The notes: a model not told the origin generated them from the letters alone. 32,000 nucleotides of DNA from Haloquadratum walsbyi C23 (GCF_000237865.1 NC_017459.1:1320001-1352000); one strand, 5' to 3'; numbered from the stretch's first letter, positions 5,800-32,000 are shown. Translations and numbers: made by a program.

Positions 5800-5823
5800 A
5801 ATTATATTTACATTGTATTATCG

Positions 5824-5836
5824 GATAATTAAAACT
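5824..5836 (-). promoter_or_regulatory. Possible TATA-box-like element for a leaderless transcript of the NTPase-helicase operon
   Basis: On the minus strand GTTTTAATTAT sits about 28-36 nt upstream of the ATG at 5799, in a strongly AT-rich intergenic region. The call rests on position and composition only. Confidence 0.25.
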
Positions 5837-6526
5837 TTTCACGAGAGTCATTCTCATACACACTGTCCTCAAACTATCGAATATTGAATATATGTAAGTA
5901 ATTGACCTGCTAGAAGGTCTGAGAGCCATTCTGAGTGAAATATCTCACCAGGCGTGTATTGACGCGTCACGCTATCCGCTATATCATCAATGTTCATTCG
6001 CTCTCACTCACTCAATTCTATATACATGTATGAGCAAATAAATGTTCGCGTACTTATATGAGATGCTGGAGATGTTATTACCGTCGTCAGCCACGATGAT
6101 TGCGGCGCGCGAGTTCACGGATCACCGCGGTTGTTGCTGGTTCGCCTCTCATCTCCAATTGAGAGATTCTACATCTGACCCAGTGGATTGTAACATTATA
6201 TAACCAGATATACACGGCAACAACGATCCCAAACCGCAGGTGAAAGATATAATTACGCAGTGATTCTCTGAAAGCAGCATATTCGGCGTTGGGCGAGCGA
6301 TATTGATCCAAACCATGCGATTGCATCCAATCCTGCGAGTGATTTTCTACTAACCATACTTCGGTGGAACCCGCTTAATTCAATACAACGGTGGAACAGA
6401 TTCGATTATCCTTCCGGATCCGTCCCCTCATAAATCACTATCGGTATAGTAGTTTTACCCAAGATCTATGCTCAACTACTTCAACCGGGCAGAGAACCAG
6501 ATGAGTCGTTGTTTTTGAAGAACAGA

Positions 6527-7054
6527 CTACCCGAGACGTACCTCATAATGATGATCGTTGATTACACTGAGTCCGGTAAGACATGGCTGTGTCTCCCCAA
6601 TTGGAATATCTGAACATTCATAGATGCTATATCGGATCATATCATCATCACCATCGACCGTGTGTGCCCGAAGATACACAGGCACGAGTTGATCGACGGT
6701 GAGCGATAGTGACATTTCGGCTGCAAGCGTCGGATAGCCTATCCTATGCTTTGCTAATTTCCGTCCACGTCCACGTTTCGCCTCAATAACCAGCAGAATC
6801 CGCTTGCCCCCTCGACGAGTCATAATAAGCCCATCAATCTCGATTTGCCCACTATTATGATGGACAACTGTCGGGTGATCGGGATGCGGTTCAAATTGAA
6901 AATCAAATGTGGATGCGACTGTCGTCGGGGCAGTGCCAATCTGAGCGGTGTCGAGACACTCGAAGTCATGGAGGAGCTCACCAGCAAAAGCGAACTCACC
7001 GAGAGCGACGTCCAGGAGATTGCGGATAAAATCAACGAGAGTGGACGAACTCAC
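6527..7054 (-). CDS. PD-(D/E)xK (restriction-endonuclease-fold) nuclease-like protein; start uncertain
   Basis: The motif EIDGLIMTRRGGKRILLVIEAKRGRG fits D-x16-E-x-K, similar to NucS or Mrr-type cores. The track ORF (ATG 7198) would run antisense through the PIN gene 5' end. The only other in-frame start upstream of the motif is GTG at 7054. Confidence 0.5.
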   Translation of the reverse strand: MSSSTLVDFIRNLLDVALGEFAFAGELLHDFECLDTAQIGTAPTTVASTFDFQFEPHPDHPTVVHHNSGQIEIDGLIMTRRGGKRILLVIEAKRGRGRKLAKHRIGYPTLAAEMSLSLTVDQLVPVYLRAHTVDGDDDMIRYSIYECSDIPIGETQPCLTGLSVINDHHYEVRLG

Positions 7055-7075
7055 GTTGATGAGGAATCGGCGTAG
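6845..7075 (+). CDS. Possible short or degenerate antitoxin partner of the PIN protein; start uncertain (internal ATG at 6968)
   Basis: It ends 9 nt before the PIN ATG. The acidic C-terminal part MEELTSKSELTESDVQEIADKINESGRTHVDEESA looks protein-like. The N-terminal 40 aa are Cys/Arg-rich and overlap the minus-strand nuclease-like ORF. Confidence 0.3.
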   Translation: MPTIMMDNCRVIGMRFKLKIKCGCDCRRGSANLSGVETLEVMEELTSKSELTESDVQEIADKINESGRTHVDEESA

Positions 7076-7084
7076 ATTCGACGG

Positions 7085-7474
7085 ATGAAGTTGGTCATCG
7101 ACGCTAATGTCGTCATCTCTGCACTCATCGCTGATTCGAAAACGCGGGAGCTCATCGTCACGCTCGACCCCGAGCTTTTGACACCCGCGTTTGTCCACGA
7201 CGAAGTAGAGAACTACGAGGACCTAATCGTCGACAAATCCGGGATGAAACCGGTGCGAGTGGCACGGTTCATCGACCTTCTGTTCCAATACATCGACGTT
7301 GTCACCGCCAGCGAGTTCTATCCGGCTATCGAGAGCGCAGACGAAGCAATCGGTGATACCGATCCGGACGATACATTGTATCTGGCGTGTGCGATAGCCT
7401 GCGATGCGGCAATCTGGAGTGACGACTCCGACTTCTCCCTTCAAAAACGGAATCCAAATCAAGCGCTCTGTTGA
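7085..7474 (+). CDS. PIN-domain (VapC-like) ribonuclease toxin
   Basis: Motifs are MKLVIDANVVISAL (first Asp), HDEVENY, DPDDTLYLACA and IWSDDSDF (last acidic residue). The last ~12 aa may be frameshifted, because an alternative frame reads FKNGIQIKRSVEILQN and ends at 7490. Confidence 0.85.
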   Translation: MKLVIDANVVISALIADSKTRELIVTLDPELLTPAFVHDEVENYEDLIVDKSGMKPVRVARFIDLLFQYIDVVTASEFYPAIESADEAIGDTDPDDTLYLACAIACDAAIWSDDSDFSLQKRNPNQALC

Positions 7475-7624
7475 AATCCTCCAGAACTGATAGGATCGGT
7501 ATGCGAAATACAGAGCGTGGATGCAGCAAGTCGATAGGTGTCGATTCGACACTCTGTTTCCGACTGCTTTCGCTCTGAAACAGCACATGAGGTTTTACCG
7601 ATTTGGAGAGAAAACACTGCATTC

Positions 7625-8125
7625 ATGCCCTCCCGTCGGAGTATCATTGCGTCACTCGGAGCTTTGATTTTGAGCGGATTCGGTGCGTGGTTCTGGCTCA
7701 CCTCCGAATCCGCATCGGGATATGTCCAAGAAAAATCAATCGAAGCGAGATACCGAGAAGAGAATCAATTGCACAGTGAATCGATTATCACAGTCACTCT
7801 CAGCAACCCGCCTGGTTCTGCCCCTCCTCAATTAAGTTGGCTACACGATGACTGGCAAAACCAATTTGACTCCCCAACCAGTCCGGTCGTTTCTGAAGCC
7901 CTGGATAAGCAACTCCACCAAGCCTACGAAGATATCCGGTATATCGTTGGTGTTTGTACTCCAGCATGGGGGAACGAACAACAGGAGACAGGCTGTCACA
8001 ACGCGCCCACCAGTCGAGAGGAATTTAACCGGGTTCAAGTCCACAACCGCGTGAGTGCCTCATATACTGACACCGGACTCTCGATACATCGCGTCAACGG
8101 AACGTGGTCATTCGATAACCCGTGA
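7625..8125 (+). CDS. Secreted or membrane-anchored protein with a twin-arginine-type signal
   Basis: An internal ATG at 7625 gives MPSRRSIIASLGALILSGFGAWFWL (SRR plus a hydrophobic stretch). The 29 upstream codons of the track ORF lack protein-like character. Confidence 0.65.
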   Translation: MPSRRSIIASLGALILSGFGAWFWLTSESASGYVQEKSIEARYREENQLHSESIITVTLSNPPGSAPPQLSWLHDDWQNQFDSPTSPVVSEALDKQLHQAYEDIRYIVGVCTPAWGNEQQETGCHNAPTSREEFNRVQVHNRVSASYTDTGLSIHRVNGTWSFDNP

Positions 8126-8177
8126 CAAGGAGCGTTCTGTAACGACATCCGTTCAGTCGTATACTGGTCAGGATTTT

Positions 8178-8259
8178 GTGACCGATACGCGCATTTGATT
8201 CATCACCCGGTGGATCATTCCATTCAGTAGTTGATAGATAACACAGTGACCGATACAGA
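8178..8259 (+). repeat. R-family intergenic repeat, copy R1 (~80 nt)
   Basis: It aligns by eye with 9109..9190, 20921..21000 and 22134..22202. It begins and ends with the same 11-mer, GTGACCGATAC (8178..8188 and 8246..8256). Confidence 0.8.
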
Positions 8260-8359
8260 AGATGTATTCATCGAAGGGAGATCCCGATAGTAGCATTTCA
8301 GCCAATGAAACAGCAGTCAAGTCCTTTTTCGTATGATTAGCGAAACACGATACCGAGCC

Positions 8360-8563
8360 ATGAGCGAACGATCTTGTCCGGATTGTGATGTCCAGATGGA
8401 ACAGACGAACGTAACCGCTGAGGGCGTCGGTGACCTGTACATCGAAACTGAGAGAGACGGCGGTATCCTCGACCGCCTCGGCGTCGGGTATCAAGCTCCA
8501 CTTTCTGCATATCTTTGTCCGGAGTGTGGGCTCACTCGACTCTCTGCGGACCTTTCTGAGTAG
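8360..8563 (+). CDS. Small zinc-ribbon protein (CPDC...CPEC)
   Basis: MSERSCPDCDVQMEQ...LCPECGLTRLSADLSE carries two CxxC pairs and is acidic. I prefer the ATG at 8360 over the one at 8333. Confidence 0.6.
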   Translation: MSERSCPDCDVQMEQTNVTAEGVGDLYIETERDGGILDRLGVGYQAPLSAYLCPECGLTRLSADLSE

Positions 8564-8579
8564 TCAGGGGAGAAGACGT

Positions 8580-9074
8580 ATGCCTTCCATTGAGTCGTTC
8601 CCGACGAAACGCGGCACAGCACGGTTCTCCGAGGATTACGTGTACTTTCAGGAGTCGTTTTCGGGGTACATTAACTCACTCTACCGAAACTACTGGCAGC
8701 GCGGAACGTGGTGGTCTAGTGCTGCCTTTGTCGGTCATTTGTTTGCATATCCAATCGGCATCTGGTGGGTAGTCAGCGCGGTTTACGATGGGAACTTTCT
8801 CCACATCGCTGCCCTTTGCGGGTTGATCCTCGTACTCTATGTAGTGAATTACGCACGTGGGTTCCGATCGCCAGACCGAATTCGACTTGATACAATCGAG
8901 CAGGTCTCTGCAACGGATGGTATAAAAGGGATAACACGTCCTCGACTCGTTATTAGATACACTGACGGGGGAACGACGTATAAACGCCGCGTAAACCTCC
9001 CATCACTTTACACGAGTGGTAGAGAGACAGTATACGAACAGGCACGGGAGTCGTTTACCGAGCGGGGCTTCTGA
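8580..9074 (+). CDS. Membrane protein (two predicted TM helices plus a soluble C-terminal domain)
   Basis: An internal ATG at 8580 lies 16 nt after the zinc-ribbon stop. Hydrophobic segments are WWSSAAFVGHLFAYPIGIWWVVSAV and FLHIAALCGLILVLYVV. Confidence 0.7.
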   Translation: MPSIESFPTKRGTARFSEDYVYFQESFSGYINSLYRNYWQRGTWWSSAAFVGHLFAYPIGIWWVVSAVYDGNFLHIAALCGLILVLYVVNYARGFRSPDRIRLDTIEQVSATDGIKGITRPRLVIRYTDGGTTYKRRVNLPSLYTSGRETVYEQARESFTERGF

Positions 9075-9108
9075 ACGGTGCTTTTGATTCGGCGAGGAGG
9101 GGACGGCA

Positions 9109-9190
9109 ATGCTGGATACGCGCATTTGATTCAGCAATCGGCGGATCATTCTAGTCTGTTGCTGATAGGTCGCCGAATGACCGATGCAGA
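9109..9190 (+). repeat. R-family intergenic repeat, copy R2
   Basis: ATGCTGGATACGCGCATTTGATTCAGCAATCGGCGGATCATT...ATGACCGATGCAGA aligns with R1 along its whole length. Confidence 0.8.
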
Positions 9191-9323
9191 GATTACACTC
9201 AGTAATCTCGATCCCTACTATGGGGATACCAGAACGTCAGCAGAGAGAAATTTCACGCTTGAGCTGGTGTCAACGAGTATCTCCCTATTTATCGGTATGA
9301 CCCGCTGGATTAGAATAACGCGA

Positions 9324-9941
9324 CTAGTTTTCGGTTATCCCCTGTACGATAGTGATCAGCCGCCCCCGGTTCCTAACTGCTAATTCAGTTCCAGCAAGCA
9401 CAGCAAGGACTCCTAGTGTCGCTGGGCCAAAGTAGATGAGCCAGAGGATGAGAAAGAATGTAGGAGTACCTTCGCCGCCAACGAAGAGAAACGCATAGAC
9501 GGTACCCCACGTCGTTGCAAATAGCCAGACCCCAGCGATACGAAACCGATAAGAGAGATACAGAATTGTGGCACCACCCCACTGCGTGATAAACAGCATT
9601 CCGACCCCAATCATGATTGGGAGAACGAATGGGAGATCTGATGGAAACTCAGCCGCGAACCGCCAGAAAAGTATTCGCACACCAGCCCAGAAGGATAGCA
9701 ATGCCACAGCGTAAATCAATCCACCTATGATAGCAATCCGGCGACGATTATCAGCTGCCCTGCCCTGCAACACAAACGCCGAGACCGCTGTGAGTGCCAC
9801 CACGGTTGCGATGAAAACAGTTAGCCCGAGACTCCCCAAAGCGAGATGTGGTTGAAGTTGCAGGGGCTGTAATGACGCCCCCAACGGAATCCCATCGATG
9901 GAGACGAATGCGATGTCCAGTCCCAGCCGAATAGTGGACAT
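9324..9941 (-). CDS. Polytopic integral membrane protein, unknown function
   Basis: This 205-aa ORF has an ATG start and multiple long hydrophobic segments throughout. Confidence 0.75.
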   Translation of the reverse strand: MSTIRLGLDIAFVSIDGIPLGASLQPLQLQPHLALGSLGLTVFIATVVALTAVSAFVLQGRAADNRRRIAIIGGLIYAVALLSFWAGVRILFWRFAAEFPSDLPFVLPIMIGVGMLFITQWGGATILYLSYRFRIAGVWLFATTWGTVYAFLFVGGEGTPTFFLILWLIYFGPATLGVLAVLAGTELAVRNRGRLITIVQGITEN

Positions 9942-10196
9942 ACAAAACGCCTACTCGCAACGACGTATCAATCTGGCTCGTCGTTGCACAGTAAGAGAAC
10001 CGATCTGTATCGCAAGAAACCGATCAAGAGGTTTGTACAATGCAAACATGACATACGCTATGGGAACGATATCCGCCCCCTGAATCGGATATACTCATAG
10101 TGCTTTTATTCAGTCCGTAATCATAGTCAAATTGAGATATATTATCAAGATCAAAACTCTCAGTACTGTATCCTGAACGAGGCGGTTCTAACTAGT

Positions 10197-10775
10197 TTAG
10201 GTCGTTAGTGGTGGGGCTACCGCCGCCTGGTTCAGGAAGGTTCCCACAATGAGAATGATGACCACAATCGACCGTGGAATCGTCACTCGCAGCTTCCGAG
10301 TAAAGTAGCCACGGACAGGAGGGGCTGCAAAGGCTGCCAACAGTACATATATGCTTGTCGTGCAGATGAGTCGAACTGGCTGTCCGGAAGCGCTTTCTGT
10401 TGCCACCCAAATCGCCAGAAGAATCAAAAAGCCGGCAGCGAACCACGATGCGAGCGGCCCAGTCGTCTCAATCCGTATTAACCGGGCTGTCTTGTGAATA
10501 TACCTAGCCCGTCGTTGCTGGGTGGTCTCAACCTGCTCGGCAGCATAGGCGAGCGGTCTGTCTCTTTCGCCGAAATCTTTCAGCGCCGACAGCAACACGA
10601 AGAATAACACAAACGAGAGTACTGTCCACATCACTTGGTCGGCGGGAGTAATCACATATCTGCTGCCCAAGTCCCCTTCCCCTGGGTCAGGAATGACAAC
10701 GAACCACAACAGCTCAACAGCAAGAAACAAACATGCAATTGTCCACCGAACGATCGGCTGCTCAAGTTTTCCCAC
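10197..10775 (-). CDS. Integral membrane protein, unknown function
   Basis: This 192-aa ORF has a GTG start at 10775 and about 4 hydrophobic segments separated by a charged loop (RRARYIHKTARLIR). Confidence 0.6.
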   Translation of the reverse strand: MGKLEQPIVRWTIACLFLAVELLWFVVIPDPGEGDLGSRYVITPADQVMWTVLSFVLFFVLLSALKDFGERDRPLAYAAEQVETTQQRRARYIHKTARLIRIETTGPLASWFAAGFLILLAIWVATESASGQPVRLICTTSIYVLLAAFAAPPVRGYFTRKLRVTIPRSIVVIILIVGTFLNQAAVAPPLTT

Positions 10776-11022
10776 GCTTGGCAGTAAATCGGCTCTGAGC
10801 TGAATAAATTCACTGTGTCGAGATGGTTCAGTTCTGGCAGAACAGCACTCCCAAAATCGACCTTTTTTATACTATATCTTCCCAAAACTATGCTGACTCT
10901 TTCTCTGGGAGCTTTCAGTATATAAAGAACCGTCCGTTTGTGAACAGGAGAGTTTCACCAATTCATAAAAAATGTGAAATGAGTACATAAACAGACTTTC
11001 AGATAAGACTAGATATCGAATG

Positions 11023-11790
11023 AATCCTTGTTGATATCTTCATACTCTCACGCAGAATATGATATCTGTCCTGTGCGAAAACTACAGTTGCTTGAAATCT
11101 GTCTGTTTGTCGTAGTATGGGGAACCCTTCTTATGACGAAGAACATTCAACTCAGTCATACTCCTCAGGACTCGTTTGATTGTTTCCTCACTCGGGATCT
11201 CATCATATCCATCTTGATATAATCGGGACTTAATATCTGAGACTGTGAACTCTGTCTTCGATTCATCCACGACACTGCTCCATACTCTATCACGAGGGGT
11301 GACAGGACTATTGTTATCATTCGGCTGAACAGGACTACTCATATGTTGTTCTATGGGGACACAGACACATATATGATGTCGTAGCAGCGTGGTAACATTC
11401 CCCAAGAATGGATCAATTACAGCAGCACTGTCACAGATGCGCGGGCTCAATCCCACTCGCATTGTGATTAACGCAGACTCTGGTGAATAGTGCTCTTCAG
11501 AGAACAGACAGCAGAGAACAGAGATCGATCTTCCCAGGAGAGAATGTCATCAAATGGGAGTAAACGGATTATATCAATTACTCCAATTAATTGTAGACAG
11601 ACTGCGAGTTAGGATATTGATGAATCTCGACTCCAGTTCAGAGTACTCAACTGTGGAATTGACAGAGCCGAGTTTCGAGTAGTCTCTCAGTGAGAACCCG
11701 AAACCAGACACCTGATATTGACGCTTAATTTTGCATTGTGTTGAATGACTCACAACCTCGTCTGAATTGTTGACATGCTTCTGGTAAAAT
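11023..11790. repeat. Segmental repeat copy A (small wHTH gene plus ~450 nt of conserved non-coding sequence)
   Basis: It is collinear with 12371..13135 at a constant offset of 1348 nt. I counted about 20 mismatches by eye over ~710 nt (11023..11733). Similarity is weaker to ~11790. Confidence 0.9.
11082..11342 (-). CDS. Small winged-helix-like DNA-binding protein (86 aa), paralogue 1
   Basis: MSSPVQPNDNNSPVTPRDRVWSSVVDESKTEFTVSDIKSRLYQDGYDEIPSEETIKRVLRSMTELNVLRHKKGSPYY has a helix-turn-helix-plus-wing pattern. Most substitutions against copy B in this core are synonymous. The track ORF extends to ATG 11462 with a Cys/His-rich, non-acidic extension. Confidence 0.6.
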   Translation of the reverse strand: MSSPVQPNDNNSPVTPRDRVWSSVVDESKTEFTVSDIKSRLYQDGYDEIPSEETIKRVLRSMTELNVLRHKKGSPYYDKQTDFKQL

Positions 11791-11925
11791 ACTCTTCTCA
11801 CTCCTGCGGACCGACAACGCATCCTGGGATATCCCTCTCCCGCTCCCGAAAATCAGTGATACTGTCGTGTCTCATATCCAGAAACTGAGAATAGAATTCT
11901 TCTTATTCTGCAAAGATATTCGAAT

Positions 11926-19182: not shown

Positions 19183-19599
19183 TCATGTCCGATACCAGTC
19201 CAGTTCCTCGGTCACGTCGAATCCATAATGTTGAGCGTCTGTCCGAAGCCCAATTAGGAACCCCGCTCTGTACGCATACTCAGAGCTGGGGACATTCCCA
19301 GTCAGGTCATCACTGGTTAGTTCCCGTTCAGACGGAAGGTACTGGTCTAACCGTTCTTCAATACACTCATGGAATGAATAAAGTGCGGAAATAAAGTTAT
19401 GCATCGCAGCTTTCACATTTAACAGGTATACTTCTGCCTGCTTAGGGTGATATGAATACGTCGGCTCTGCTACGTTGGTGTGACCATCTGTTTCCTGATT
19501 ATAGAGGTGAGAAGACTGTTTCAGACTCGGTGAACTCCACTCTCTGTCTGAAACTATTGCCCTCAGAGAAACCGGCTGTCTCCCGTTATATTCATCCAC
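19183..19599 (-). CDS. Hypothetical protein with a C-terminal Rx4H (HEPN-like) motif
   Basis: This 138-aa ORF has a GTG start. The C-terminal region reads ...YRAGFLIGLRTDAQHYGF, preceded by predicted helices (AEVYLLNVKAAMHNFISALYSFHECIEERL). Confidence 0.45.
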   Translation of the reverse strand: MDEYNGRQPVSLRAIVSDREWSSPSLKQSSHLYNQETDGHTNVAEPTYSYHPKQAEVYLLNVKAAMHNFISALYSFHECIEERLDQYLPSERELTSDDLTGNVPSSEYAYRAGFLIGLRTDAQHYGFDVTEELDWYRT

Positions 19600-19666
19600 T
19601 CAAGAGATACCAATATGCACAGATATATTCAGGCACAAACCACTCCTCTCATCAAGAGTCTTCAGA
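19507..19666. repeat. ~160-nt repeat, copy 1 (5' end and upstream region of gene 19183..19599)
   Basis: It aligns with 20122..20285 in direct orientation, with roughly four-fifths identity by eye. Confidence 0.8.
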
Positions 19667-20121: not shown

Positions 20122-20285
20122 GTGAGAAGACTGTTTCACATTCGATGAATCCCATGCTTCTGTTTCTGAAATTATTGCCCTCAGAGAAACCGGCTGTCTC
20201 CCGTTATATTCATTCACTCAAGAGATACCAATATGCACCGATATATGCTGGCAGAAAGCGCTCATGCTTATCAAGAGTCTTCAGA
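20122..20285. repeat. ~160-nt repeat, copy 2 (contains a truncated 41-codon paralogue of the 19183..19599 N-terminus)
   Basis: The minus strand from 20217 to 20092 reads VNEYNGRQPVSLRAIISETEAWDSSNVKQSSHNCGVSESQS*. The intact gene begins VDEYNGRQPVSLRAIVSDREWSSPSLKQSSH. Confidence 0.8.
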
Positions 20286-21000: not shown

Positions 21001-21163
21001 GTGTACCTACACCAGCCGATTTTGTCCTTCACAGATAGTCGTCCACAAGAGAGCCGCCTAACTAGTGAACATAATACTTAATTAAAACACACCAGAACAA
21101 CTATTTGTGCTACCTGGTCCCCCCTCCCTTCGAACAGTGGTTAGTGAGATAGCTGTGTTCATA

Positions 21164-21814
21164 ATGGTAGCGTTCAGGCGATTAACCGACGCTACGCGTT
21201 CAGCTGTTTGGGCGATGTGGCGTGTCATCCGACGATTCGCTCACAGTTTCCTGTCGCTGTCTGCCACCGTATATGCCAGAGTGGGTGCTATCCTCTCCGG
21301 GCCTGTCAAGCAGTTCGTGGTCGGACCGTTGCGGGTAGCCCTTCTGGGACAACGTCGTGATGTTTCGCTCTTCATTGCGCTCCTGTCGCCGGTTCTGACC
21401 CTCGGGACAGCCTGGTGGGTCGGCTCCACAATCGGTTATGACACGCTGACCGCGTGGGTTCGCGGAACGTGGTTCGGAACTGATCCGTCACTGGCAATTT
21501 TCCTCGCAATCGGTGGTCTGGTTGTAATTGGTGCAATCAGCGCGGCCGTCAATTCAGGGCTGCTCCCGACGAGTGTCTTGGTGGGTGCGCCCGTTTTCGG
21601 TGCAGGTGTCACCCGATATGGAACGACCGTCACCTACTCATGGGGAACCCACGTCGTTTCGCTTCCCGAGGCCGTAGGAATAGCGGGTTTCTTTGCAGTC
21701 GGATTCGGAATTCCGATTGCTCTGTGTGGCTTCGTTCTGGGGCGTGCCCTCTGCTACGTGATTAGCGTGTACGGCGGTCATTCTGGACCGCCCTCACCGG
21801 TAGAAAACGCCTGA
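21164..21814 (+). CDS. Polytopic membrane protein, unknown function
   Basis: An internal ATG at 21164 gives MVAFRRLTDATRS.... There are at least 5 hydrophobic segments. The track ORF starts at GTG 21107. Confidence 0.7.
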   Translation: MVAFRRLTDATRSAVWAMWRVIRRFAHSFLSLSATVYARVGAILSGPVKQFVVGPLRVALLGQRRDVSLFIALLSPVLTLGTAWWVGSTIGYDTLTAWVRGTWFGTDPSLAIFLAIGGLVVIGAISAAVNSGLLPTSVLVGAPVFGAGVTRYGTTVTYSWGTHVVSLPEAVGIAGFFAVGFGIPIALCGFVLGRALCYVISVYGGHSGPPSPVENA

Positions 21815-23732: not shown

Positions 23733-23789
23733 CTCAGCTTTGCACGTTGAATCGGAAGCGTGACGTACTGAGTAGCAGGAACAGATGAT
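23733..23789. repeat. 57-nt intergenic repeat, copy X
   Basis: CTCAGCTTTGCACGTTGAATCGGAAGCGTGACGTACTGAGTAGCAGGAACAGATGAT matches 24776..24832 at 47 of 57 positions by my count. Confidence 0.75.
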
Positions 23790-23857
23790 CCCGATTACAG
23801 ACTTCTCCGAGACTACCATGCGAAGCTGAGTATTCGTAAGTACTACCCATACAGAAT

Positions 23858-24766
23858 ATGAGTATACCACTGTCATTGATGGATCCTCTCACTGCGACTA
23901 TTGTAGTAGTCTCACTGATGCTACTCATTCTGCTGGCTTTCGGATCTCCGATTATATACACCGGGTGGAAACAGCGACAGCAGTATCACCAGTTGTCTGC
24001 AATACACACTAGTCTTGACGATGCTATCCCAGGGGAGGCTGTTGCTGTCTAAGGAACTGTGAGTAGCCAGTCACGGACTATTGACTCCCCGTACCGCTCA
24101 CAGCGTTGTGCTCTCGCGCTATGGGATACAGCGAGATTGAGTCGTGGTCAGGGAACGCAGTGGTTCCTGGAAGCCTCAGGCGTGATGGCAGATGAACTGC
24201 TGATTACTCTCGATACTGAACACGTGCCGGTCACAGGTCAACTACGCCAAAGAAGAGTACAGACCACAGCTCAGACGCTGAGCTCGGCTCTTGGAGTTGA
24301 TGTGAATTCCACGCTTGCGTTTATCGACACCGAACTCTCTCAGTCGGAGTTCGAGAAACAGTTCACACCGACAGAGGACCTCACAGAGACATATCGGGCT
24401 CACAACCGCGATATCGGGTTCGACAGACCAACACGAGACTCCTCCAACATGTTGGTGAGGCTGCTCGCAGAGCAACTCACTCCTCACAACACGGTTCGAT
24501 ATAGGGAGTTGACGTTTCAGGGTGGTGATGAGATAACGATCATCGGAGAGAAGACAGACGACGGTATTTCAGTTGTGGAAACCGGGGGCACTCACCCGAT
24601 TATCTCCTCGGAGTCGCTCTCGAATCGTCTCAGCAGATACCGACGAGAGTACGTCCTCCGATTGTATGGGTACCCGGCGTTCTGTCTCCTATTCTCGGCT
24701 CTGATCGCATACCCAATTGGAGGCGTCCCAAATGCCAATAATGTTCAATTCACGCTTTACATCTAA
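23858..24766 (+). pseudogene. Membrane protein (N- and C-terminal TM helices; possibly GIDE-domain-like) split by a single in-frame TAA
   Basis: ORFs 23858..24052 and 24059..24766 share one frame and are separated only by TAA (24050..24052) plus two codons. The junction reads ...DDAIPGEAVAV*GTVSSQSRTIDSPYRSQRCALALWD.... The second part has no ATG, only a GTG. Confidence 0.55.
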
Positions 24767-24775
24767 CCACAGTAT

Positions 24776-24832
24776 CTCAGCTTTGCACGTTGAACTAGAA
24801 GCATGACGTAGGCGGTAGCAAGAACGGATGAT
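24776..24832. repeat. 57-nt intergenic repeat, copy Y
   Basis: See copy X. The orientation is the same. Confidence 0.75.
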
Positions 24833-24980
24833 GTCGATCATGGACTTTTTACAGTGTGCGCGTGTACAACAGATTCGAATCGCTATGTGTGACAGACAGT
24901 GACAATAAGCCCCAAATATCGACAGGTCGTATAAGTAATTCCCGGGTTTCCACCACCGAAGCCCGTTGTTTTGTGGAATT

Positions 24981-25415
24981 ATGTTCGAATTTGAATCTGG
25001 ACCTAACCCCGATCTTGGAGCTGAGTCTGAATCCAATACTGAAGTCAACACCGAGATCAAGCCACGTCTTCAGCGCGCTCTTGAGGAACCACTTTCGGTC
25101 GTGTCGACTGAGGGAACTCCCGTCGAGAGTGACGCGTGGTTCGTCTCAGTTGTTTCACACAGTGGCGAATCATACACTGTCGACGTCCGTGACGGTCGCT
25201 GCAACTGTCCTGATGCACGGTATCATCTCGGTGCGGATCAGCGGTGTAAACATCAGATACGTGCCGAAATCGCGCTTGGACGGATGCCGGTGCCACCTTA
25301 CGCTGCGGAGACCGCTGATATTGACCGACTCCTCGGGGAACATACTGATGCGAATCTGCGATTCCTCGTGAACGACGGAGGATGTTATCGACAGGACATA
25401 CACCTCCGAACCTGA
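24981..25415 (+). CDS. SWIM-type zinc-finger protein
   Basis: YTVDVRDGRCNCPDARYHLGADQRCKHQIRAEIALG fits the CxCx(n)CxH signature. The N-terminus from ATG 24981 is acidic (MFEFESGPNPDLGAESES). Confidence 0.75.
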   Translation: MFEFESGPNPDLGAESESNTEVNTEIKPRLQRALEEPLSVVSTEGTPVESDAWFVSVVSHSGESYTVDVRDGRCNCPDARYHLGADQRCKHQIRAEIALGRMPVPPYAAETADIDRLLGEHTDANLRFLVNDGGCYRQDIHLRT

Positions 25416-25794
25416 CGAGGTGAAAAGACGCCAGGACTAGTCTCACTCTCGAATCCGAACACGGGGTCTACGTTCCAGCTGTTCGTTTCGACGAGGCAAA
25501 GCACCAGGTCGAAACTGCTGAGTCTGTATTATAGAGTCGGCGCTTCCCGTGACAGACGGTTATCAGGGGTCGGGGCGCATCGGGAGTTCGATGGTCGCAT
25601 TATGTAACTAATCCTTTCTGTATACGACGATATGTTACATAAGGCAATATCAACAATAAATATCGATTTACGCCAACTTAATAAACTCCGCTGGTCTGTT
25701 GAACTCCTCTCGTATTTATACCGTTCCGTGTAAATCTGCCATTAGAGAGGACTGCGAACGGTCGATTCAATCCTCCGATCGTATCATCACGTTG

Positions 25795-26067
25795 CTAGAC
25801 CCAGTGAAGGATATAAAGAAGGTAGATGCTAGCGCTCGTAACGAGTATACCAACCGCAATCAAAGCCACAGCAGCCAAGCCAGTTGTGTAGAATCCCATT
25901 TGAACCGCTTGGAGACCAACAAGAACGGTGAATGCTGCTAGTATCGTCCAAAAGACAGTCGAGAGAACTGACCGCCCCACTCTTGACATTTCCTCTCTCA
26001 CAGCACGTCGAATTTCAACTTCAGTGAGGTTGTCGGAGTTGCCCATATCGAACATTATGTTGACCAT
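25795..26067 (-). CDS. Small two-TM membrane protein
   Basis: This 90-aa ORF has a charged N-terminus (EVEIRRAVREEMSR) followed by two hydrophobic helices. Confidence 0.5.
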   Translation of the reverse strand: MVNIMFDMGNSDNLTEVEIRRAVREEMSRVGRSVLSTVFWTILAAFTVLVGLQAVQMGFYTTGLAAVALIAVGILVTSASIYLLYILHWV

Positions 26068-26121
26068 CCATTATATAACTGGCCTGGACAGCATGAGAAG
26101 TGTACTATCGGTATCTAACGC

Positions 26122-26301
26122 TCAGAGTGTCTTGTCGATGGTATCTGTGAGACAACCAACAGCAAGTTCATAGAGCTGTATCCACCGGTAGCGTGAGCGG
26201 ACGAATACGCCATACTTACGCTTGAGTTGGGAGTTTACTGTCTCTTCCTGACTCCGTTGAAAGCGTGTCAGAGAAAGGTTTCCGCAGGGATTGAATAGTA
26301 G
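26122..26301 (-). pseudogene. C-terminal remnant (~59 codons) of an IS4/IS5-type DDE transposase
   Basis: The minus strand reads LFNPCGNLSLTRFQRSQEETVNSQLKRKYGVFVRSRYRWIQLYELAVGCLTDTIDKTL*. It contains the R-x3-E-x6-K part of the YREK signature. A stop lies immediately upstream, and no N-terminal part is present. Confidence 0.6.
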
Positions 26302-26425
26302 TCAAATATAGATATCACACGTGTGCTAATAAGTGACGACTATATGAAATCAATCAGAAGACCAGTGAAACATGCAGAGGTTACATATGGTAAATCGTCA
26401 AGATCCGAGTCCTTCGGTAATGCCC

Positions 26426-26752
26426 TCACGGACCTCGAAGGATTCGGAAGAGGAGCGTAACCGGACGAACCATTGTGTGTCCAAGGTCGGCGATCACAAA
26501 GTCACGTTCGTGACACCGATCATAGAGGTATAATGCAACCGGGAGAAATCCAAAACAGATCACGAAACTAGCGAAGACAACGATTTCCGGCAGTTCAATG
26601 CCAATAACGGACACTCCAAGTACAAACATAGTCATCACTGCGGTGCCGATCCCGACTGCATACGAGATCCGACCTACTTCGAATATCAGATATTTTTTAG
26701 AGAGACCGAAGTACGTCTCGTCCATTTGGTTCGGGTCTGTCCCGTTGCTCAT
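26426..26752 (-). CDS. Small membrane protein, unknown function
   Basis: This 108-aa ORF has an ATG start and two or three hydrophobic segments. Confidence 0.5.
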   Translation of the reverse strand: MSNGTDPNQMDETYFGLSKKYLIFEVGRISYAVGIGTAVMTMFVLGVSVIGIELPEIVVFASFVICFGFLPVALYLYDRCHERDFVIADLGHTMVRPVTLLFRILRGP

Positions 26753-27341
26753 TACTTATCAGATGTGACTGTGGTGTAATATACGTCACCGACGGTCTCA
26801 CACTGTGAAACCTGACCTGTCTCTCTGTACCCCGTGCTACGGTTGCGCTGTCCATCTTGCATACCGGCACAATCCAGTATTGGGATTCTCTTCGTATGGA
26901 GTGACGAGTATGGACAGCGTCGAATCCATCCGAATCGCTGCCTGCTGACTGGGTCATCTGGACTGTGACTGCACTGGCACTCATCGCAACTGGAAATATC
27001 GTTGATATACTCCTCAACAATGGAACGCTTGCGCTAGTTAGCTATGTGGGTATATGAATTAATTATTCACCGTCGAGTGTTCAAATTCCGAGCACGGTAT
27101 TAATGACCATTTTTTGATTCCCGTTCAGGAAAATGTTCTCTCGATTATCCTTGTTGTAGACTGGAGCATGATCGATCGAACATAGCCTGCCATCTGATAT
27201 AATGATTGAATCAATCGGAGAATGATCATCTTCATCCTTGCGACGGTGGGAGATAACTCTATTCTCAGTCGTCGGTCAGTTTGAATCATAAGTAACATAT
27301 TTTAATTGATATTTAATCACATTCATATCAGACGTGTATGT

Positions 27342-27632
27342 ATGAGTGAGAATATCGGGGTCGAAGTATCAAATCGTCATCACAGTGAAGAAGAGAGTGA
27401 GGATGACACTGAAGCACAAGATGATGAACACGGGGCAATAAAATCCCAGCAGTTCAGCTTTGAAAAGAATGAGACAGTCGCTGATCTTATTATGAAGGCA
27501 TTAATCGATGATGGGACGGTCACACCCGATGAGTTGCCAATCTCGTCTGCTCAAAAGGCGTTACGGATATACGCTTATCAACATTCCAACGTCACATTTG
27601 ATTCGAGGGAATCGACACTCCGCCGGAGATGA
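27342..27632 (+). CDS. Small highly acidic protein, unknown function
   Basis: An internal ATG at 27342 gives MSENIGVEVSNRHHSEEESEDDTEAQDDEHG.... The flanks are AT-rich. Confidence 0.5.
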   Translation: MSENIGVEVSNRHHSEEESEDDTEAQDDEHGAIKSQQFSFEKNETVADLIMKALIDDGTVTPDELPISSAQKALRIYAYQHSNVTFDSRESTLRRR

Positions 27633-28150
27633 TTCGCTAATCGAGTCTGGAATCTAAACTGCCGCATCGTTCGACTAATTTAATTCCTTCAATGCGAATA
27701 TTGGACAATATCATAAATTAATGATATCTGATTGGAAAGGTTATAGGCTCAAATAATATCAGAATGTGGACTGGTGAAGATCAATTTATTAACGCTGATG
27801 AGTAACGGCGTTGAGTAATACTACATTCACAGCGCGGGATCCTCATTTATCAGATTGCACAGCTCCATGCTGTCGAATCCCGCCTGTTGATTAGCGAGGA
27901 TTCATTCTCCTCATATACATCAAACATATGTTCTTTATTTCTGCTATGTCCAAACGTAGTAACTACTGTCAGCGTAACTTACATTACTGTCGGGGTTATC
28001 TCTCCTAGAGGCAACTCATTTCCGAACACATTATAGGACAAAATATCAACGATATTGGCGACAACTGTACGAGGAATCCAGTCTACAGGTCACATGTATC
28101 ATGATAAATTCCTATCGGACGGGTAAAAACAGAATGTTCACCATACACTG

Positions 28151-28681
28151 ATGAGACAGCAAAGGATCTTCGAGCAGGTACCCAGATTAGTGATTTTGCC
28201 CTCTGTGGACGACTTTGCTCGACAACGAGAAAGATATGAGCATCGGGGATTATCGAAAACGGCTGGTCGGTACGCCGACCCCTCCACAGTATTAGAGGAC
28301 AACGTCAGCGATGGGAAATTTGAACTTTTTATATCCCAACTCAGTGAACTTAGTGACAACAACTCGAGGAACGACGTTGGCATCGACGATGTGCAAAAAG
28401 CCACTGAAACCGTCATTGAAAAAAGTCTCACCCAACACGTCGGAGAAGATCTGAGCATCTCACTTGATCTGTCAAGTCCCACCGTTTCCGATATTACGAC
28501 GCGACTATTCAATGACGGGGCTATCGCATCGAATATTGACCTGTTGGTGACTGGATTCGAGGATAGTGCATCACAGGGGCTGCTATCACTCCTAAATAAG
28601 TACCAACTGATGACGCCATTATGTTTACACCAGCGGGATGTACATGAGAAGTGGCGAGAAAATAGCAGGAGCCTTACATGA
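28151..28681 (+). CDS. Unknown 176-aa protein; first gene of the Mre11/Rad50-like operon
   Basis: It has an ATG start and acidic composition. Its stop overlaps the next start (ATGA at 28678..28681). No motif was recognised. Confidence 0.6.
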   Translation: MRQQRIFEQVPRLVILPSVDDFARQRERYEHRGLSKTAGRYADPSTVLEDNVSDGKFELFISQLSELSDNNSRNDVGIDDVQKATETVIEKSLTQHVGEDLSISLDLSSPTVSDITTRLFNDGAIASNIDLLVTGFEDSASQGLLSLLNKYQLMTPLCLHQRDVHEKWRENSRSLT

Positions 28682-29172
28682 TGGAGCAGGTGATTCACTA
28701 TGGGATCCCTCAGAAAGTGAGACATCCGGTTGATGAGATCATGAACTTTAGTGGTCTTCTGCCGGATGGCACGTTGATCGATGTTGTTCCTATGACCAAG
28801 TCAGCTGATCAGCGGTTGATTCAACAAGGGAGTTCTGGTTTTGGGAACATTGATAACGGGACTGCGGTGGCTGATAACAGTGAGGAGGGGCTGCTGGTGT
28901 CGCACAAACCGGATTGCGGCACCGCACATCTATTGAAGATCACTGTGCAAGATTATGTCTCGTTGAATCGCGATGAGATTAATTCGCGGACTGCAGAGGA
29001 ATTGCTGATGAAGTACTCTCAGTTGAGTTGCTTGAATTGGTTCTCAGGTTTCAATCAGGGCAAGTGTGCCCTGCTGCAAGTTCTGACGCACAATTTGGAT
29101 GAGAATCTGTCCGCGGACATTGATGCCCCGGACAGCATGTCGATAATCTCGTTCATACGGAGTGACATATAA
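28678..29172 (+). CDS. Unknown 164-aa protein; second gene of the Mre11/Rad50-like operon
   Basis: It is coupled at both ends: ATGA with the upstream gene and TAATG (29170..29174) with the downstream gene. No motif was recognised. Confidence 0.6.
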   Translation: MMEQVIHYGIPQKVRHPVDEIMNFSGLLPDGTLIDVVPMTKSADQRLIQQGSSGFGNIDNGTAVADNSEEGLLVSHKPDCGTAHLLKITVQDYVSLNRDEINSRTAEELLMKYSQLSCLNWFSGFNQGKCALLQVLTHNLDENLSADIDAPDSMSIISFIRSDI

Positions 29173-30551
29173 TGAGTTCAAAACAAAATACGACGTTTGC
29201 ACATATTTCAGACGCACATATCGGGCATCGACAGTATAATGTCAAGAAGCGGCGGGATGATATGCAGCTCTCGTTTCTGTCTGCCGCTGTAGAAGCCATA
29301 GACCGGGGCGTGGATTTCGCAGTTTTCTCTGGTGACTTGTTTCACAACAAGGATGTTGATGCGCTGGCGTTGAGTGATGCTGAGAGGTGTTTAGATGAGT
29401 TTCAGACCGAGAATGATAATGAGGACGATATCCCGGTTGTTGCGATCCAAGGGAATCATGATGACAACCTCTACAAAGAGGATTTAGGTTGGCTTGAGTA
29501 TCTCCATCAGCAGGGGAAGCTGATTTTCCTAGAGGCTGATTTCGGGGATACAGAAACGTTTGAACCACATGATCCAGATAATAAAGGGACGTCAGCCGGG
29601 TTTGTGGACTTTGATGATGTCCGGGTATTCGGAGTCCAGTATCTTGGTCGGCGCTTGGAGAATCATTTGGATGACGTTGTGGAGGGAATTCAAGCAGCGA
29701 ATGAGCGGTATGGCGAGCCGGGCTATACGGTTTTACTTGGACATTTCGGTATTGAGGGTCAGGTGCCGAAGATGTCTGGATTGGAGTACAGTAAGTTGGA
29801 GCCACTTCGGGAGATGGTAGACTACTTTGGTGTCGGGCATCTGCACACGCAGTACTCAATTGCTGATTGGGTGTATAGTCCTGGTTCGCTCGAGGTTCAC
29901 AGCATTCGTGAGGATAGCAACGATCTCGGGTACTACACTGTTACGACCACTAATGATGGGTTGGAGCCGGAACACCATCTGGCGAAAAGACGTCCGTTCT
30001 ATACTGTTGAGTTCAGTGTGGATGGGTATGAGTCTCCTGACGAACTTGCGCAAGACTTTGATCAGCAGGTGGAGGCAGAGGTCCCGAATCTGCGTGAAAC
30101 ACAGGATCGTGAGCAGTTCCGTGGGCGTGGTGAGCGACGGAATCCAGTGGTGTACCTCCGCTTGACTGGGCTATTGGAGTTCAGTCGCAGTCGGTTGGAT
30201 ATGGATGTGCTCAAAGGAAGTATTGAAGAGCGCATGGATCCGATTCACATCGAACCGAATGACGCCATGGAGACTCGAGATGCGATTTCTGTTCTTGAGA
30301 ATATTGATGATGGAAAGGATGCTGTAACGGATGAGTACGGTCAGATTGACCGTGATAAACTGGAACGTCGGGTATTTGAGCAGCTGGTGGATGGGCACCC
30401 GAAGTTTGGGGACTGTCCTGAGGAGATCGCTTCGGTGTTGCAGTCAGTCAAGCGACGGCATCTGGCAGGGGAACCGATTGATGCGGTATCGGATATGATT
30501 CAAGAGGAGCGGCGTGAGCTATTTTCCGTCGAGGGAGGTGATTCGGCATGA
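29172..30551 (+). CDS. mre11: Mre11/SbcD-family calcineurin-like phosphoesterase nuclease
   Basis: The phosphoesterase motifs appear in order: HISDAHIGH, SGDLFH, IQGNHDD, LLGHFG and VGHLHT. The protein is 459 aa. Its stop overlaps the Rad50-like start (ATGA at 30548..30551). Confidence 0.85.
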   Translation: MSSKQNTTFAHISDAHIGHRQYNVKKRRDDMQLSFLSAAVEAIDRGVDFAVFSGDLFHNKDVDALALSDAERCLDEFQTENDNEDDIPVVAIQGNHDDNLYKEDLGWLEYLHQQGKLIFLEADFGDTETFEPHDPDNKGTSAGFVDFDDVRVFGVQYLGRRLENHLDDVVEGIQAANERYGEPGYTVLLGHFGIEGQVPKMSGLEYSKLEPLREMVDYFGVGHLHTQYSIADWVYSPGSLEVHSIREDSNDLGYYTVTTTNDGLEPEHHLAKRRPFYTVEFSVDGYESPDELAQDFDQQVEAEVPNLRETQDREQFRGRGERRNPVVYLRLTGLLEFSRSRLDMDVLKGSIEERMDPIHIEPNDAMETRDAISVLENIDDGKDAVTDEYGQIDRDKLERRVFEQLVDGHPKFGDCPEEIASVLQSVKRRHLAGEPIDAVSDMIQEERRELFSVEGGDSA

Positions 30552-32000
30552 AGATTGAATCTATTGAACTTTCCAATATCAAAAGCTATGATGATAGTCG
30601 CACGAATGTCGAGTTGACTGATGGTGTTAATGCGGTGATTGGTGAGAATGGAGCAGGGAAGTCGACTGTTCAGCAGGCGATTGGGTTTGCGTTATTTGAT
30701 CATCTCCGGGTGTCCAGCCAGGGCGATTTCGTGCGGAATGGTGAGTCGTCTGGTTGTGTTCGGGTGACGTTTGTCTCGAATGAGGATGGACACCGATACA
30801 CCGTGGAGCGCCATGCTGGTCGTTCTAAACACCGGGTTATTGATTCGGAGACTGGCAAATTGTTGGATGGTCTGAGTGGTAAGAGCGAGCGGATTAGATG
30901 GCTGAAGGAGCATCTTGGGGTGCCACAGAACACTGATCTAGATACAGTCTGGAAATCGAGTGTTGGGGTACCGCAGAACAAGTTTGCTGAGGATTTTGCG
31001 AAGACGCCGGCAAATCGTGAAAGTGTATTTGATCCGTTGCTTGACTTGGATGTCTACGATAATATTTCTAGCTCCAGTGATTCCCGCCCGGACCTGTTGG
31101 AAGCAAAGCGTGAACTTGAGGATGAGTTGGATGAACTGGAGAGAGATATCGAAGCATTAGACGAGGAGGTTTCTGACCTGGATGAGTTAGTGGAGACACA
31201 CGACGAACTGAAGCACAAAATCAGGAAACTGGGCGAGGAAATTGATGAGAAGGAACGAGAACTGGACGACTTAGAGGGACGTAAGGACGCCCTTGATGAT
31301 CTAAAACAGAGGGTTGATGAGCTGTCGAACGACCAACAACTTCTCAGCGGAAAGATAGATACCAAGGAGAGTGCTCTGGATGATGTCGAGAAGGCGTTGG
31401 AGGAGGCTCGGAACGCCCGTGATCGACTCGATGAGCTTCAGGAGCAGTATGACGAGTACCAAAAGAAGGATGAAAGGCTGGATGAGTTGGAGGAAGACGT
31501 TGAGGAACGTGACGAACTAAACCAGGACCTAGAGGATGTGAATCGGAAAATAACAGGTCAGAAGCAGAAGGTCGAATCAATTGCAGCTGATGTTGAGAAG
31601 GCCGAAGATGCGCAAAGACGGATGGAGAAACTGGAGTCAGAAAAGAAGCGGCAGGAAGACCTAGAAGAGCAGCTTGACTCAATTGAGTCAGCTGAGGACG
31701 AGATCCAAGAACTCAGCGACGAGATTGATAATGTCGAGTCCAATCTTGAGTCGATGAGAGAGGACCTGGGTGAGACCATGATAAAAATCGAGCAAATACG
31801 GGCGTTAGAGAACACAGCTAACAGACTCGATGAGTTGGAAGAAAGAGAGCGCAAGCTCCTCAATGAGCAGTCCGGTCACGAGATCCGTATTGATGACCTA
31901 GAGGAGTCAATTCAGGCGTTACAGGAGGCTGATGAACCGGTGTGTCCGACCTGTGGGCAGGAACTGACCGAGACAGAAAGAGAAAATGAAATTGAGGAAC
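30548..32000 (+). CDS. rad50: Rad50/SbcC-family SMC-like ATPase, N-terminal 484 codons (truncated by window end)
   Basis: I translated it by hand; it is not in the ORF track because it has no stop in the window. The Walker A motif GENGAGKST lies at 30641..30667. A long acidic heptad-like coiled coil follows. The CPTC zinc-hook CxxC is at 31943..31954. Confidence 0.85.
   Translation, partial: MKIESIELSNIKSYDDSRTNVELTDGVNAVIGENGAGKSTVQQAIGFALFDHLRVSSQGDFVRNGESSGCVRVTFVSNEDGHRYTVERHAGRSKHRVIDSETGKLLDGLSGKSERIRWLKEHLGVPQNTDLDTVWKSSVGVPQNKFAEDFAKTPANRESVFDPLLDLDVYDNISSSSDSRPDLLEAKRELEDELDELERDIEALDEEVSDLDELVETHDELKHKIRKLGEEIDEKERELDDLEGRKDALDDLKQRVDELSNDQQLLSGKIDTKESALDDVEKALEEARNARDRLDELQEQYDEYQKKDERLDELEEDVEERDELNQDLEDVNRKITGQKQKVESIAADVEKAEDAQRRMEKLESEKKRQEDLEEQLDSIESAEDEIQELSDEIDNVESNLESMREDLGETMIKIEQIRALENTANRLDELEERERKLLNEQSGHEIRIDDLEESIQALQEADEPVCPTCGQELTETERENEIEE

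Follow-up and report, generated by a model that had tools for sequence, protein, structure and literature searches.

Thermophilic archaea possess an operon with the genes of Mre11, Rad50, HerA and NurA (Constantinesco et al. 2002 and 2004, as cited in PMC7776575), while Haloferax volcanii has Mre11-Rad50 and neither HerA nor NurA (PMC7776575). With regard to prokaryotic Argonautes (pAgos), it has been reported that CbAgo requires the processing of double-strand breaks by RecBCD for interference and guide biogenesis (10.1101/2020.03.01.971358), and that long-A pAgos of haloarchaea, together with PLD partners, protect against plasmids and a virus (PMC11442185). Here we analyze a locus of Haloquadratum walsbyi C23 in which the remnant of a long pAgo gene directly precedes an mre11-rad50 pair. 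The locus closes a stretch of 32,000 nucleotides (NC_017459.1:1320001-1352000), which we call the window; positions are counted from its first letter.

The original prediction for this region was an operon of four overlapping genes, in which two novel small proteins of 176 and 164 aa, possibly lineage-specific accessory subunits, would be co-translated with an Mre11-type nuclease and a Rad50-type ATPase. The coordinates of the four open frames are borne out (Table 1), and the three junctions are present (ATGA at 28678-28681, TAATG at 29170-29174, ATGA at 30548-30551). The two small open reading frames (ORF1 and ORF2), however, are neither accessory subunits nor genes. ORF1 is a chance open frame in a dead helicase fragment, and ORF2 is a chance open frame in the dead tail of a pAgo. 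Together, positions 28033-29172 form a scar, in which the 5' fragment of the one gene and the 3' fragment of the other meet in a single joint.

A scar of helicase and Argonaute fragments

Neither ORF1 nor ORF2 had a useful match in Pfam, NCBIfam or PHROGs. As k-mer searches gave one copy of each with 95-96% identity, both were initially candidates for orphans, a view that was given up when tblastn and exhaustive HMMER searches exposed their parent genes. In the HMMER search, residues 18-172 of ORF1 align to residues 59-213 of proteins of 875-2700 aa with 51-58% identity (E 1e-42 to 3.5e-45); ORF1 corresponds approximately to helicase residues 42-212. These large proteins contain ResIII and Helicase_C, with the ResIII domain at residues 197-345. 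In the window, tblastn traces the homology between 28033 (residue 1) and 28663 (residue 212), interrupted by stops and changes of frame. ATA has replaced the former start codon at 28033, and the reading frame is broken by a frameshift and in-frame stops before 28151. The fragment ends at residue 212, where ResIII begins in the homologues, and the helicase core motifs (ResIII and Helicase_C) are absent from it. An intact homologue of the parent helicase was observed in another locus (L044, 1239-8642), with 1238 aa and the domains ResIII, Helicase_C, DUF5797, HNH_repeat and PadR. It adjoins McrBC genes, which suggests that the parent helicase was itself a resident of defence islands.

For the second fragment, residues 600-760 of the intact pAgo of locus L004 match window positions 28666-29148 with 68% identity (tblastn, E 5.5e-61), and nothing anywhere in the window matches its residues 1-599. 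ORF2 is also found by the PADLOC pAgo model PDLC02436 (E 7e-7, model positions 297-423 of 460), the same model that the intact pAgo of L003 matches at E 6.5e-52. The remnant starts right after a conserved AKDG motif; it lacks the N, PAZ and MID domains, most of PIWI, the MID pocket and the candidate D, E and D positions of a functional long pAgo. Intact pAgo reaches 28.3 bits with Pfam Piwi, just under the curated cut-off of 28.9. Against PDB sequences phmmer found nothing for pAgo and a profile gave only a marginal match to VbAgo, so that the D, E and D positions are candidates for three members of a putative DEDX tetrad.

The appearance of tightly packed genes follows from the way in which the two fragments are connected. 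Nucleotide homology to the intact L004 pAgo starts at 28665; before this position only chance similarity is seen. As the joint is out of frame, ORF1 runs across it and its TGA overlaps an internal ATG of the pAgo; in the alignment the ATG of ORF2 is part of an invariant internal Met-Met. The overlap with mre11 requires a single substitution, by which the former pAgo stop TAG at 29149-29151 became TCG. The frame thereby reads on for 7 codons into the former spacer, up to a TAA overlapping the Mre11 ATG. In intact relatives, this spacer between pAgo stop and Mre11 start has 21-26 nt. A GGAG motif is kept from it and may represent a ribosome-binding element with a role in translation. The window, L001 and L004 share the longer motif ACGGAG without change; L009 has the purine-rich AGGAGG in this position, and L003 only a weaker purine-rich stretch. 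A co-translation of four proteins is not supported. Two of the three overlaps arose through decay, and only the ATGA between Mre11 and Rad50 is conserved in relatives. The four-gene arrangement is not conserved either, with ORF1 and ORF2 upstream of mre11-rad50 in no other lineage. Neither repeats nor insertion sequence (IS) ends were found at the joint, and the missing 3' part of the helicase was not found downstream of HerA in L081.

To distinguish decay from selection, related sequences were compared. The same scar is present in four metagenome contigs (L001, L042, L043, L080) that differ from the window by approximately 1-3% and keep both ORF lengths. In comparisons with near-identical contigs, nonsynonymous and synonymous substitutions (N:S) amount to 8:5 and 9:4 in ORF1, where the 272 bp in common with L001 are identical, and to 6:1, 4:1 and 8:2 in ORF2. 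The corresponding values are 3:5, 5:9 and 2:2 for Mre11 and 2:13 and 3:10 for Rad50. Versus L001, N:S is 6:1 in ORF2 and 5:18 in Mre11 and Rad50 together (Fisher p=0.0045). A sister lineage (L081 and L082) shares the joint. Here the scar and the adjacent upstream DNA differ at approximately 15-24% of the sites, compared to approximately 10% in the coding genes, and an additional 41-nt deletion across the joint (window 28653-28693) removes the ATG of ORF2 and fuses the frames.

Since dN/dS according to Nei-Gojobori was ambiguous for the fragments, it was replaced by a model-free test that counts substitutions between the window and L082 by codon position. For positions 1/2/3 we counted 31/28/35 substitutions in the helicase fragment (p=0.67) and 20/23/26 in the pAgo fragment (p=0.69), compared to 24/10/109 in Mre11 (p=7e-27) and 36/25/97 in Rad50 (p=4e-13). 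The rate per site is 0.15-0.19 in the fragments and 0.19-0.24 in the upstream non-coding DNA. For the module genes the Nei-Gojobori dN/dS is 0.06 (Mre11), 0.14-0.15 (Rad50) and 0.10 (NurA, see below). Both fragments evolve neutrally, and strong purifying selection acts on Mre11, Rad50 and NurA. We further observed that the sister lineage has a chimeric helicase-pAgo ORF of 336-375 aa (L081 1-1011, L082 366-1493), open despite approximately 15-19% divergence; its codon-position pattern still looks neutral.

Table 1. Features of the scar and of the genes behind it, in window positions
Feature	Position	Strand	Basis or remark
ResIII/SF2 helicase gene, 5' fragment, codons 1-212 (pseudogene)	28033..28663	+	HMMER, tblastn, codon-position test
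ORF1	28151-28681	+	176 aa open frame, within the helicase pseudogene fragment
Breakpoint, out-of-frame fusion of helicase codon ~212 and pAgo codon ~600	28663..28665	+	tblastn and nucleotide homology limits
Long pAgo, 3' remnant, ~last 161 codons of a ~760-aa gene	28665..29172	+	tblastn, PADLOC model, alignments
ORF2	28678-29172	+	164 aa open frame, within the pAgo remnant
GGAG motif	29159..29162	+	9 nt 5' of the Mre11 ATG; kept from the former pAgo-Mre11 spacer
Mre11 nuclease, archaeal type, intact, first module gene	29172..30551	+	459 aa; Pfam Metallophos
Rad50 ATPase, codons 1-484 of 905, truncated at the window end	30548..32000	+	NCBIfam, Pfam AAA_23, SMC_N

Mre11, Rad50 and the five-gene module

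The two genes behind the scar are true archaeal-type Mre11 and Rad50. Mre11 reaches 40.6 bits with Pfam Metallophos (cut-off 21.5), and its five phosphoesterase motifs (D14/H16, G54-D55, N95-H96, H191, H223/H225) are invariant in 32 homologues. A profile matches the Mre11 of Pyrococcus furiosus and Methanocaldococcus jannaschii (E 3e-27) and aligns to residues 2-334 of PfMre11. An exact look-up of the window Mre11 sequence gave no match. The AF2 model (pLDDT 83.7) has the M. jannaschii Mre11-Rad50 complex as its top Foldseek match (3av0_A, E 5e-18, 464 aligned columns), and a TM-score by target of 0.70-0.76 was obtained with P. furiosus Mre11. The predicted fold comprises the nuclease and capping domains and a C-terminal helical region of the Rad50-binding type. 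In Rad50, the Walker A motif GENGAGKST (30641-30667), an acidic coiled coil and the CPTC zinc hook (31943-31954) are present; like the five Mre11 motifs, they lie where they had been predicted. The Rad50_zn_hook match is sub-threshold in the window copy and amounts to 38 bits (cut-off 24.3) in the L003 orthologue, and NCBIfam archaeal Rad50 models match at E 5e-44. The full-length Rad50 of L001 (905 aa), 99% identical over the shared part, also has LSGGE, the Walker B motif DEPT and the H-loop (SHN), and it matches Rad50 of M. jannaschii and P. furiosus in the PDB.

The scores do not resemble those of the haloarchaeal repair proteins. Mre11 obtains 59 bits with Mre11_Halo (NF041030), for which the equivalog cut-off is 550, and Rad50, of which only the N-terminal half was available, obtains 102 bits with Rad50_Halo (NF041035, cut-off 1000). 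Pyrococcus- and Sulfolobus-type models score above the Halo models, yet far below their own cut-offs. By its ABC head and coiled coil the N-terminal half of Rad50 also matches LmuB, PbeC and similar PADLOC models (E 1e-20 to 1e-8); the Rad50 equivalog models outscore every defence model. The Mre11-like protein reached the threshold used with none of the models in PADLOC-DB 2.0; there is only a marginal match to PDC-S60 (E 2e-4).

Mre11 and Rad50 are the first members of a module, predicted to be translationally coupled, with the order Mre11-Rad50-NurA-DUF8166-HerA, which begins at 29172 and continues past the window end. The original prediction had judged its two small proteins too short for HerA or NurA. 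The unit does not lack these two genes; both are located just beyond the window end, as deduced from two contigs. L001 continues with the rest of Rad50, NurA (403 aa; Pfam E 9e-29) and the start of the DUF8166 gene, and L081 contains the full NurA-DUF8166-HerA set after Rad50. Pfam NurA and HerA (DUF87) domains are present in the module proteins. DUF8166, with approximately 205 aa, is a conserved extra gene. Its profile had no match in the PDB, nor had that of a protein of approximately 240 aa (p240) from related loci, and hhalign gave no relation between DUF8166 and HerA. NurA, DUF8166 and p240 did not match any PADLOC-DB 2.0 model at the threshold used; Rad50 and HerA gave only generic LmuB and HerA matches there.

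For the distribution of the module, one genome per species was scanned with two peptide patterns, so that the counts represent a lower bound. The scan gave 34 loci, most of them with the gene order given above and a 4-nt overlap of Mre11 and Rad50. The same five genes occur in at least 20-odd species genomes, and the module was detected in about 20 haloarchaeal species genomes. The hosts belong to Halobacteria, Thermoplasmata and Hadarchaeia, and include an Iainarchaeum metagenome-assembled genome (DPANN) and the bacterium Natroniella acetigena; plasmid copies are found in Natrinema zhouii, Halospeciosus flavus, Halobaculum marinum and strain DL31. Because of the low equivalog scores, the patchy and plasmid-borne distribution and the absence of HerA and NurA from H. 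volcanii, the module is, in our reading, accessory and horizontally moving and not the haloarchaeal housekeeping pair. An accessory paralogue had been one of two alternatives in the original prediction, and the scores far below the Halo cut-off, as well as relatives on plasmids and among defence genes, speak for it.

The neighborhood of the module points to pAgo. Mre11 relatives with 52-75% identity are located in operons with a PIWI protein of 760-763 aa directly 5' of Mre11. In L003, L004, L007 and L009 an intact pAgo lies directly 5' of the module, preceded by a P-loop/wHTH protein and the ~240-aa protein, and in three of these four a divergently oriented PLD gene (Aq_aa27 / PLDc_2) is found alongside. 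In L017 the pAgo at the same position is cut by the contig end. PLD, HTH and p240 are all present in L003, L004, L009, L047, L048, L050 and L052-L054; L049 and L051 are cut at the contig end. None of the three has any homology in the window (tblastn), which contains neither an active pAgo nor the adjacent PLD protein AgaP, the two components of the APAP system. A second PIWI clade (838-869 aa) occurs beside the module in L028 and L037, and in L037 pAgo and PLD stand directly in front of it. In a scaffold of H. walsbyi J07HQW1 (L016, 9835-18430), pieces of pAgo appear before and after Mre11-Rad50, separated by gaps of 50 N. A rearranged or decayed pAgo was considered and rejected, as the N-runs indicate an artefact of scaffold ordering; J07HQW1 probably has an intact HTH-p248-pAgo-Mre11-Rad50 operon.

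Starting from the pAgo side, a metagenome scan with a pAgo alignment gave 46 loci, of which 30 included enough downstream DNA to be informative. Module genes follow pAgo immediately in 26 of these 30. Two groups can be distinguished. With 57-100% pAgo identity the order is pAgo-Mre11-Rad50-NurA-DUF8166-HerA, and with 38-45% it is pAgo-NurA-HerA-Mre11-Rad50 (683 aa) and then a GHKL ATPase. The survival of the linkage through divergence and a reshuffled gene order is an argument for a functional connection between pAgo and the module. As a side observation, L057-L079 show the order HTH-p240-pAgo-NurA-HerA-Mre11-short Rad50 (~680 aa; e.g. L059, 6172-17794), and the ATPase after the short Rad50 is of the HATPase_c_3, MORC-like type in at least L057 and L059.

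The literature searched, with subscription-only papers outside that search, did not yield a description of pAgo linkage with Mre11, Rad50, NurA or HerA. The main text of a pAgo census paper does not mention these four proteins, a 2009 prediction paper names none of them as a pAgo neighbor, and the APAP paper (PMC11442185), likewise without them, mentions only a neighboring helicase. Within this literature the association appears to be undescribed.

The module has other neighbors as well. Directly 5' of it, in the usual place of pAgo, L038 (3753-9803) and L046 (DL31 plasmid, 5756-11806) have a gene trio that encodes a TerB_N/TerB_C-TM2 protein of 829 aa, a BrxC/D-like ATPase of 447 aa and a DEAD/Lhr-like helicase of approximately 750-770 aa. 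On the Halobaculum plasmid PLD alone is found beside the module, and further neighbors are SMODS and SLATT, restriction-modification, GmrSD, Schlafen-like helicase and McrBC-type genes. Faint TraG/TraC-like matches and a DUF8128 gene convergent to HerA were observed in L003 (17534-21374), and the same gene clusters in L008 (17530-21345). This hints that a conjugative-type element can carry the module.

Within the window itself, the region of the supposed operon has 48.8% GC compared to 48.5% in the rest, and is not the AT-rich island of the original prediction; only a stretch of approximately 1 kb upstream falls to 40.5%. The IS debris mentioned there is of the IS5 type (~25695-26260), with a transposase fragment 87% identical to a Haloprofundus plasmid copy; positions 25306-27483 are approximately 90% identical to plasmid PL47 of H. 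walsbyi DSM 16790. Adjoining the debris, a 149-aa ORF (24966-25415, + strand) with a CxC...CxH pattern matches the viral phrog_17897 (E 8e-28). At the other end, positions 126-5799 (− strand) encode a 722-aa protein with DISARM DrmE_N (E 7e-84) and DrmE_C (E 5e-66) that overlaps an 1178-aa DEAD/Helicase_C protein, an arrangement resembling a defence locus of the DISARM type. In between, direct repeats occur at 19541-19645 / 20159-20263 (105 nt, 90% identity) and at 23733-23804 / 24776-24847 (72 nt, 79% identity), and two 235-aa ORFs with GTG start at 21107-21814 and 24059-24766. Repeats and twin ORFs may represent duplicated or mobile sequence.

Proposed mechanism and rival explanations

Taken together, we consider it probable that the locus consists of a scar and of a resection module that usually travels with pAgo and here persists alone. 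In the structural and evolutionary part of this reading we have high confidence. Regarding the mechanism, the module could be a self-contained machine for DNA-end resection that travels with pAgo. Breaks in invader DNA might be introduced by pAgo, by another nuclease, or by replication itself. Mre11-Rad50 and the HerA-NurA helicase-nuclease would then degrade the DNA from the break ends, by which the invader would be destroyed and small DNA guides would be produced for pAgo. In our analysis such a cooperation with pAgo comes just short of an even chance. In the lineage of the window, the pAgo arm and the upstream partner genes are missing and the module has persisted. As the module was kept under purifying selection while approximately 0.15-0.2 neutral substitutions per site accumulated, it should work without pAgo, either by degrading linear or broken foreign DNA on its own or as an additional repair system. 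A broader idea, which we offer tentatively and regard as somewhat doubtful, is that the cassette is a mobile immune module, a portable archaeal counterpart of RecBCD. It might have been recruited by two pAgo clades, by PLD AgaP-like proteins and by sets of TerB, BrxC/D-like ATPase and DEAD helicase; it would degrade invader DNA starting at breaks and supply DNA guides, and it would survive the loss of pAgo because it keeps an anti-plasmid or antiviral activity alone.

Some observations weigh against the preferred interpretation of a scar in front of a module connected to pAgo. The dN/dS of the fragments is 0.50-0.54 by Nei-Gojobori and not 1, so that weak residual constraint is possible; as the codon-position profile is flat, we read this value as a bias of the method. 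No intact relative has a helicase of the ORF1 type beside pAgo, and both a deletion in place and the insertion of a transferred fragment are compatible with the joint. Approximately two thirds of the module-bearing species genomes have no pAgo within 10 kb, from which it follows that the module does not require pAgo. In the Thermoplasmatales loci L018-L027, Mre11-Rad50 stands without NurA or HerA in the vicinity and may be the normal housekeeping repair pair of that lineage.

How do other explanations perform against the same evidence? It is hardly credible that a true four-gene operon exists here, with the 176-aa and 164-aa proteins as new accessory subunits co-translated with Mre11 and Rad50. 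Both frames are indeed open, overlap their downstream neighbors by 4 and 1 nt and have the same lengths in the four near-identical contigs, but with so little divergence of these contigs stop codons are not expected. Both frames are pieces of much larger genes with neutral substitutions, the start of ORF2 is deleted in the sister lineage, and other lineages have neither frame 5' of the module. It is also very improbable that these genes are the organism's own housekeeping mre11-rad50 repair locus, of the herA-nurA-linked type of thermophilic archaea. The best sequence and fold matches to archaeal Mre11 and Rad50, the linked NurA and HerA and the purifying selection would agree with it; scores far under the haloarchaeal equivalog cut-offs, the absence of HerA and NurA from H. 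volcanii (PMC7776575), and a module that is patchy across archaea and Natroniella and occurs on plasmids would not. Its flanks moreover consist of restriction-modification, GmrSD, SMODS/SLATT, TerB/BrxD, Schlafen-like and pAgo genes, and the window carries DISARM DrmE.

A rival of a different kind regards the module as cargo of plasmids or integrative and conjugative elements that serves the element, in the handling of transferred DNA ends, in recombination or in maintenance, and not host immunity; the adjacency to pAgo would merely reflect a shared island location. The plasmid copies, the TraG/TraC-like and DUF8128 genes by HerA in L003 with the same clusters in L008, and the similarity of positions 25306-27483 to PL47 fit such a role. 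We nevertheless judge it unlikely, as it leaves unexplained why 26 of 30 pAgo loci have the module on the same strand immediately downstream with spacers of 21-26 nt, and why the linkage persists where pAgo identity is 38-45% and the genes are in an entirely different order. That a second pAgo clade is also located beside the module speaks against it as well.

Relation to described systems

The decay at this locus was reconstructed to the nucleotide, and it illustrates that tightly overlapping small ORFs before repair genes can be products of decay. The scar further points to a whole long-pAgo clade that has a complete break-resection set of Mre11, Rad50, NurA and HerA in one operon. Bacterial pAgos are known to rely on RecBCD, which the relevant archaea are not known to possess. 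If the proposed cooperation is true, resection encoded in the operon would explain how archaeal pAgos get their guides and finish their targets, and the operon would provide a compact and transplantable test system. The long persistence without pAgo suggests an independent role of the module in conflicts with mobile elements.

With the operon of thermophilic archaea the module shares the same four enzymes, encoded together, and its Mre11 and Rad50 are closest in sequence and fold to those of P. furiosus and M. jannaschii. It differs in that it occurs in mesophilic halophiles, the model species of which has no HerA and NurA, with a patchy and horizontal distribution on plasmids and in defence islands, contains the extra DUF8166 gene and is often joined to a pAgo operon. 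The Rad50-like ABC head and coiled coil are also known from Lamassu LmuB, PbeC, Gabija GajA and JetC systems; none of the partner proteins of these systems is present, and the nuclease is a true Mre11.

As in APAP, with its long-A pAgo and PLD protein AgaP, the intact haloarchaeal relatives have a long pAgo adjoining a PLD protein. Unlike in APAP, this pAgo is followed by the five-gene resection module and preceded by the P-loop/wHTH and ~240-aa proteins, and the window itself is without PLD or a functional pAgo. With CbAgo and RecBCD the locus would share its logic, a break-resection machine that feeds and amplifies pAgo targeting. RecBCD, however, is a housekeeping enzyme, encoded elsewhere and unrelated in sequence, whereas here the resection genes are part of the pAgo operon, and the coupling would be genetic and not only functional.

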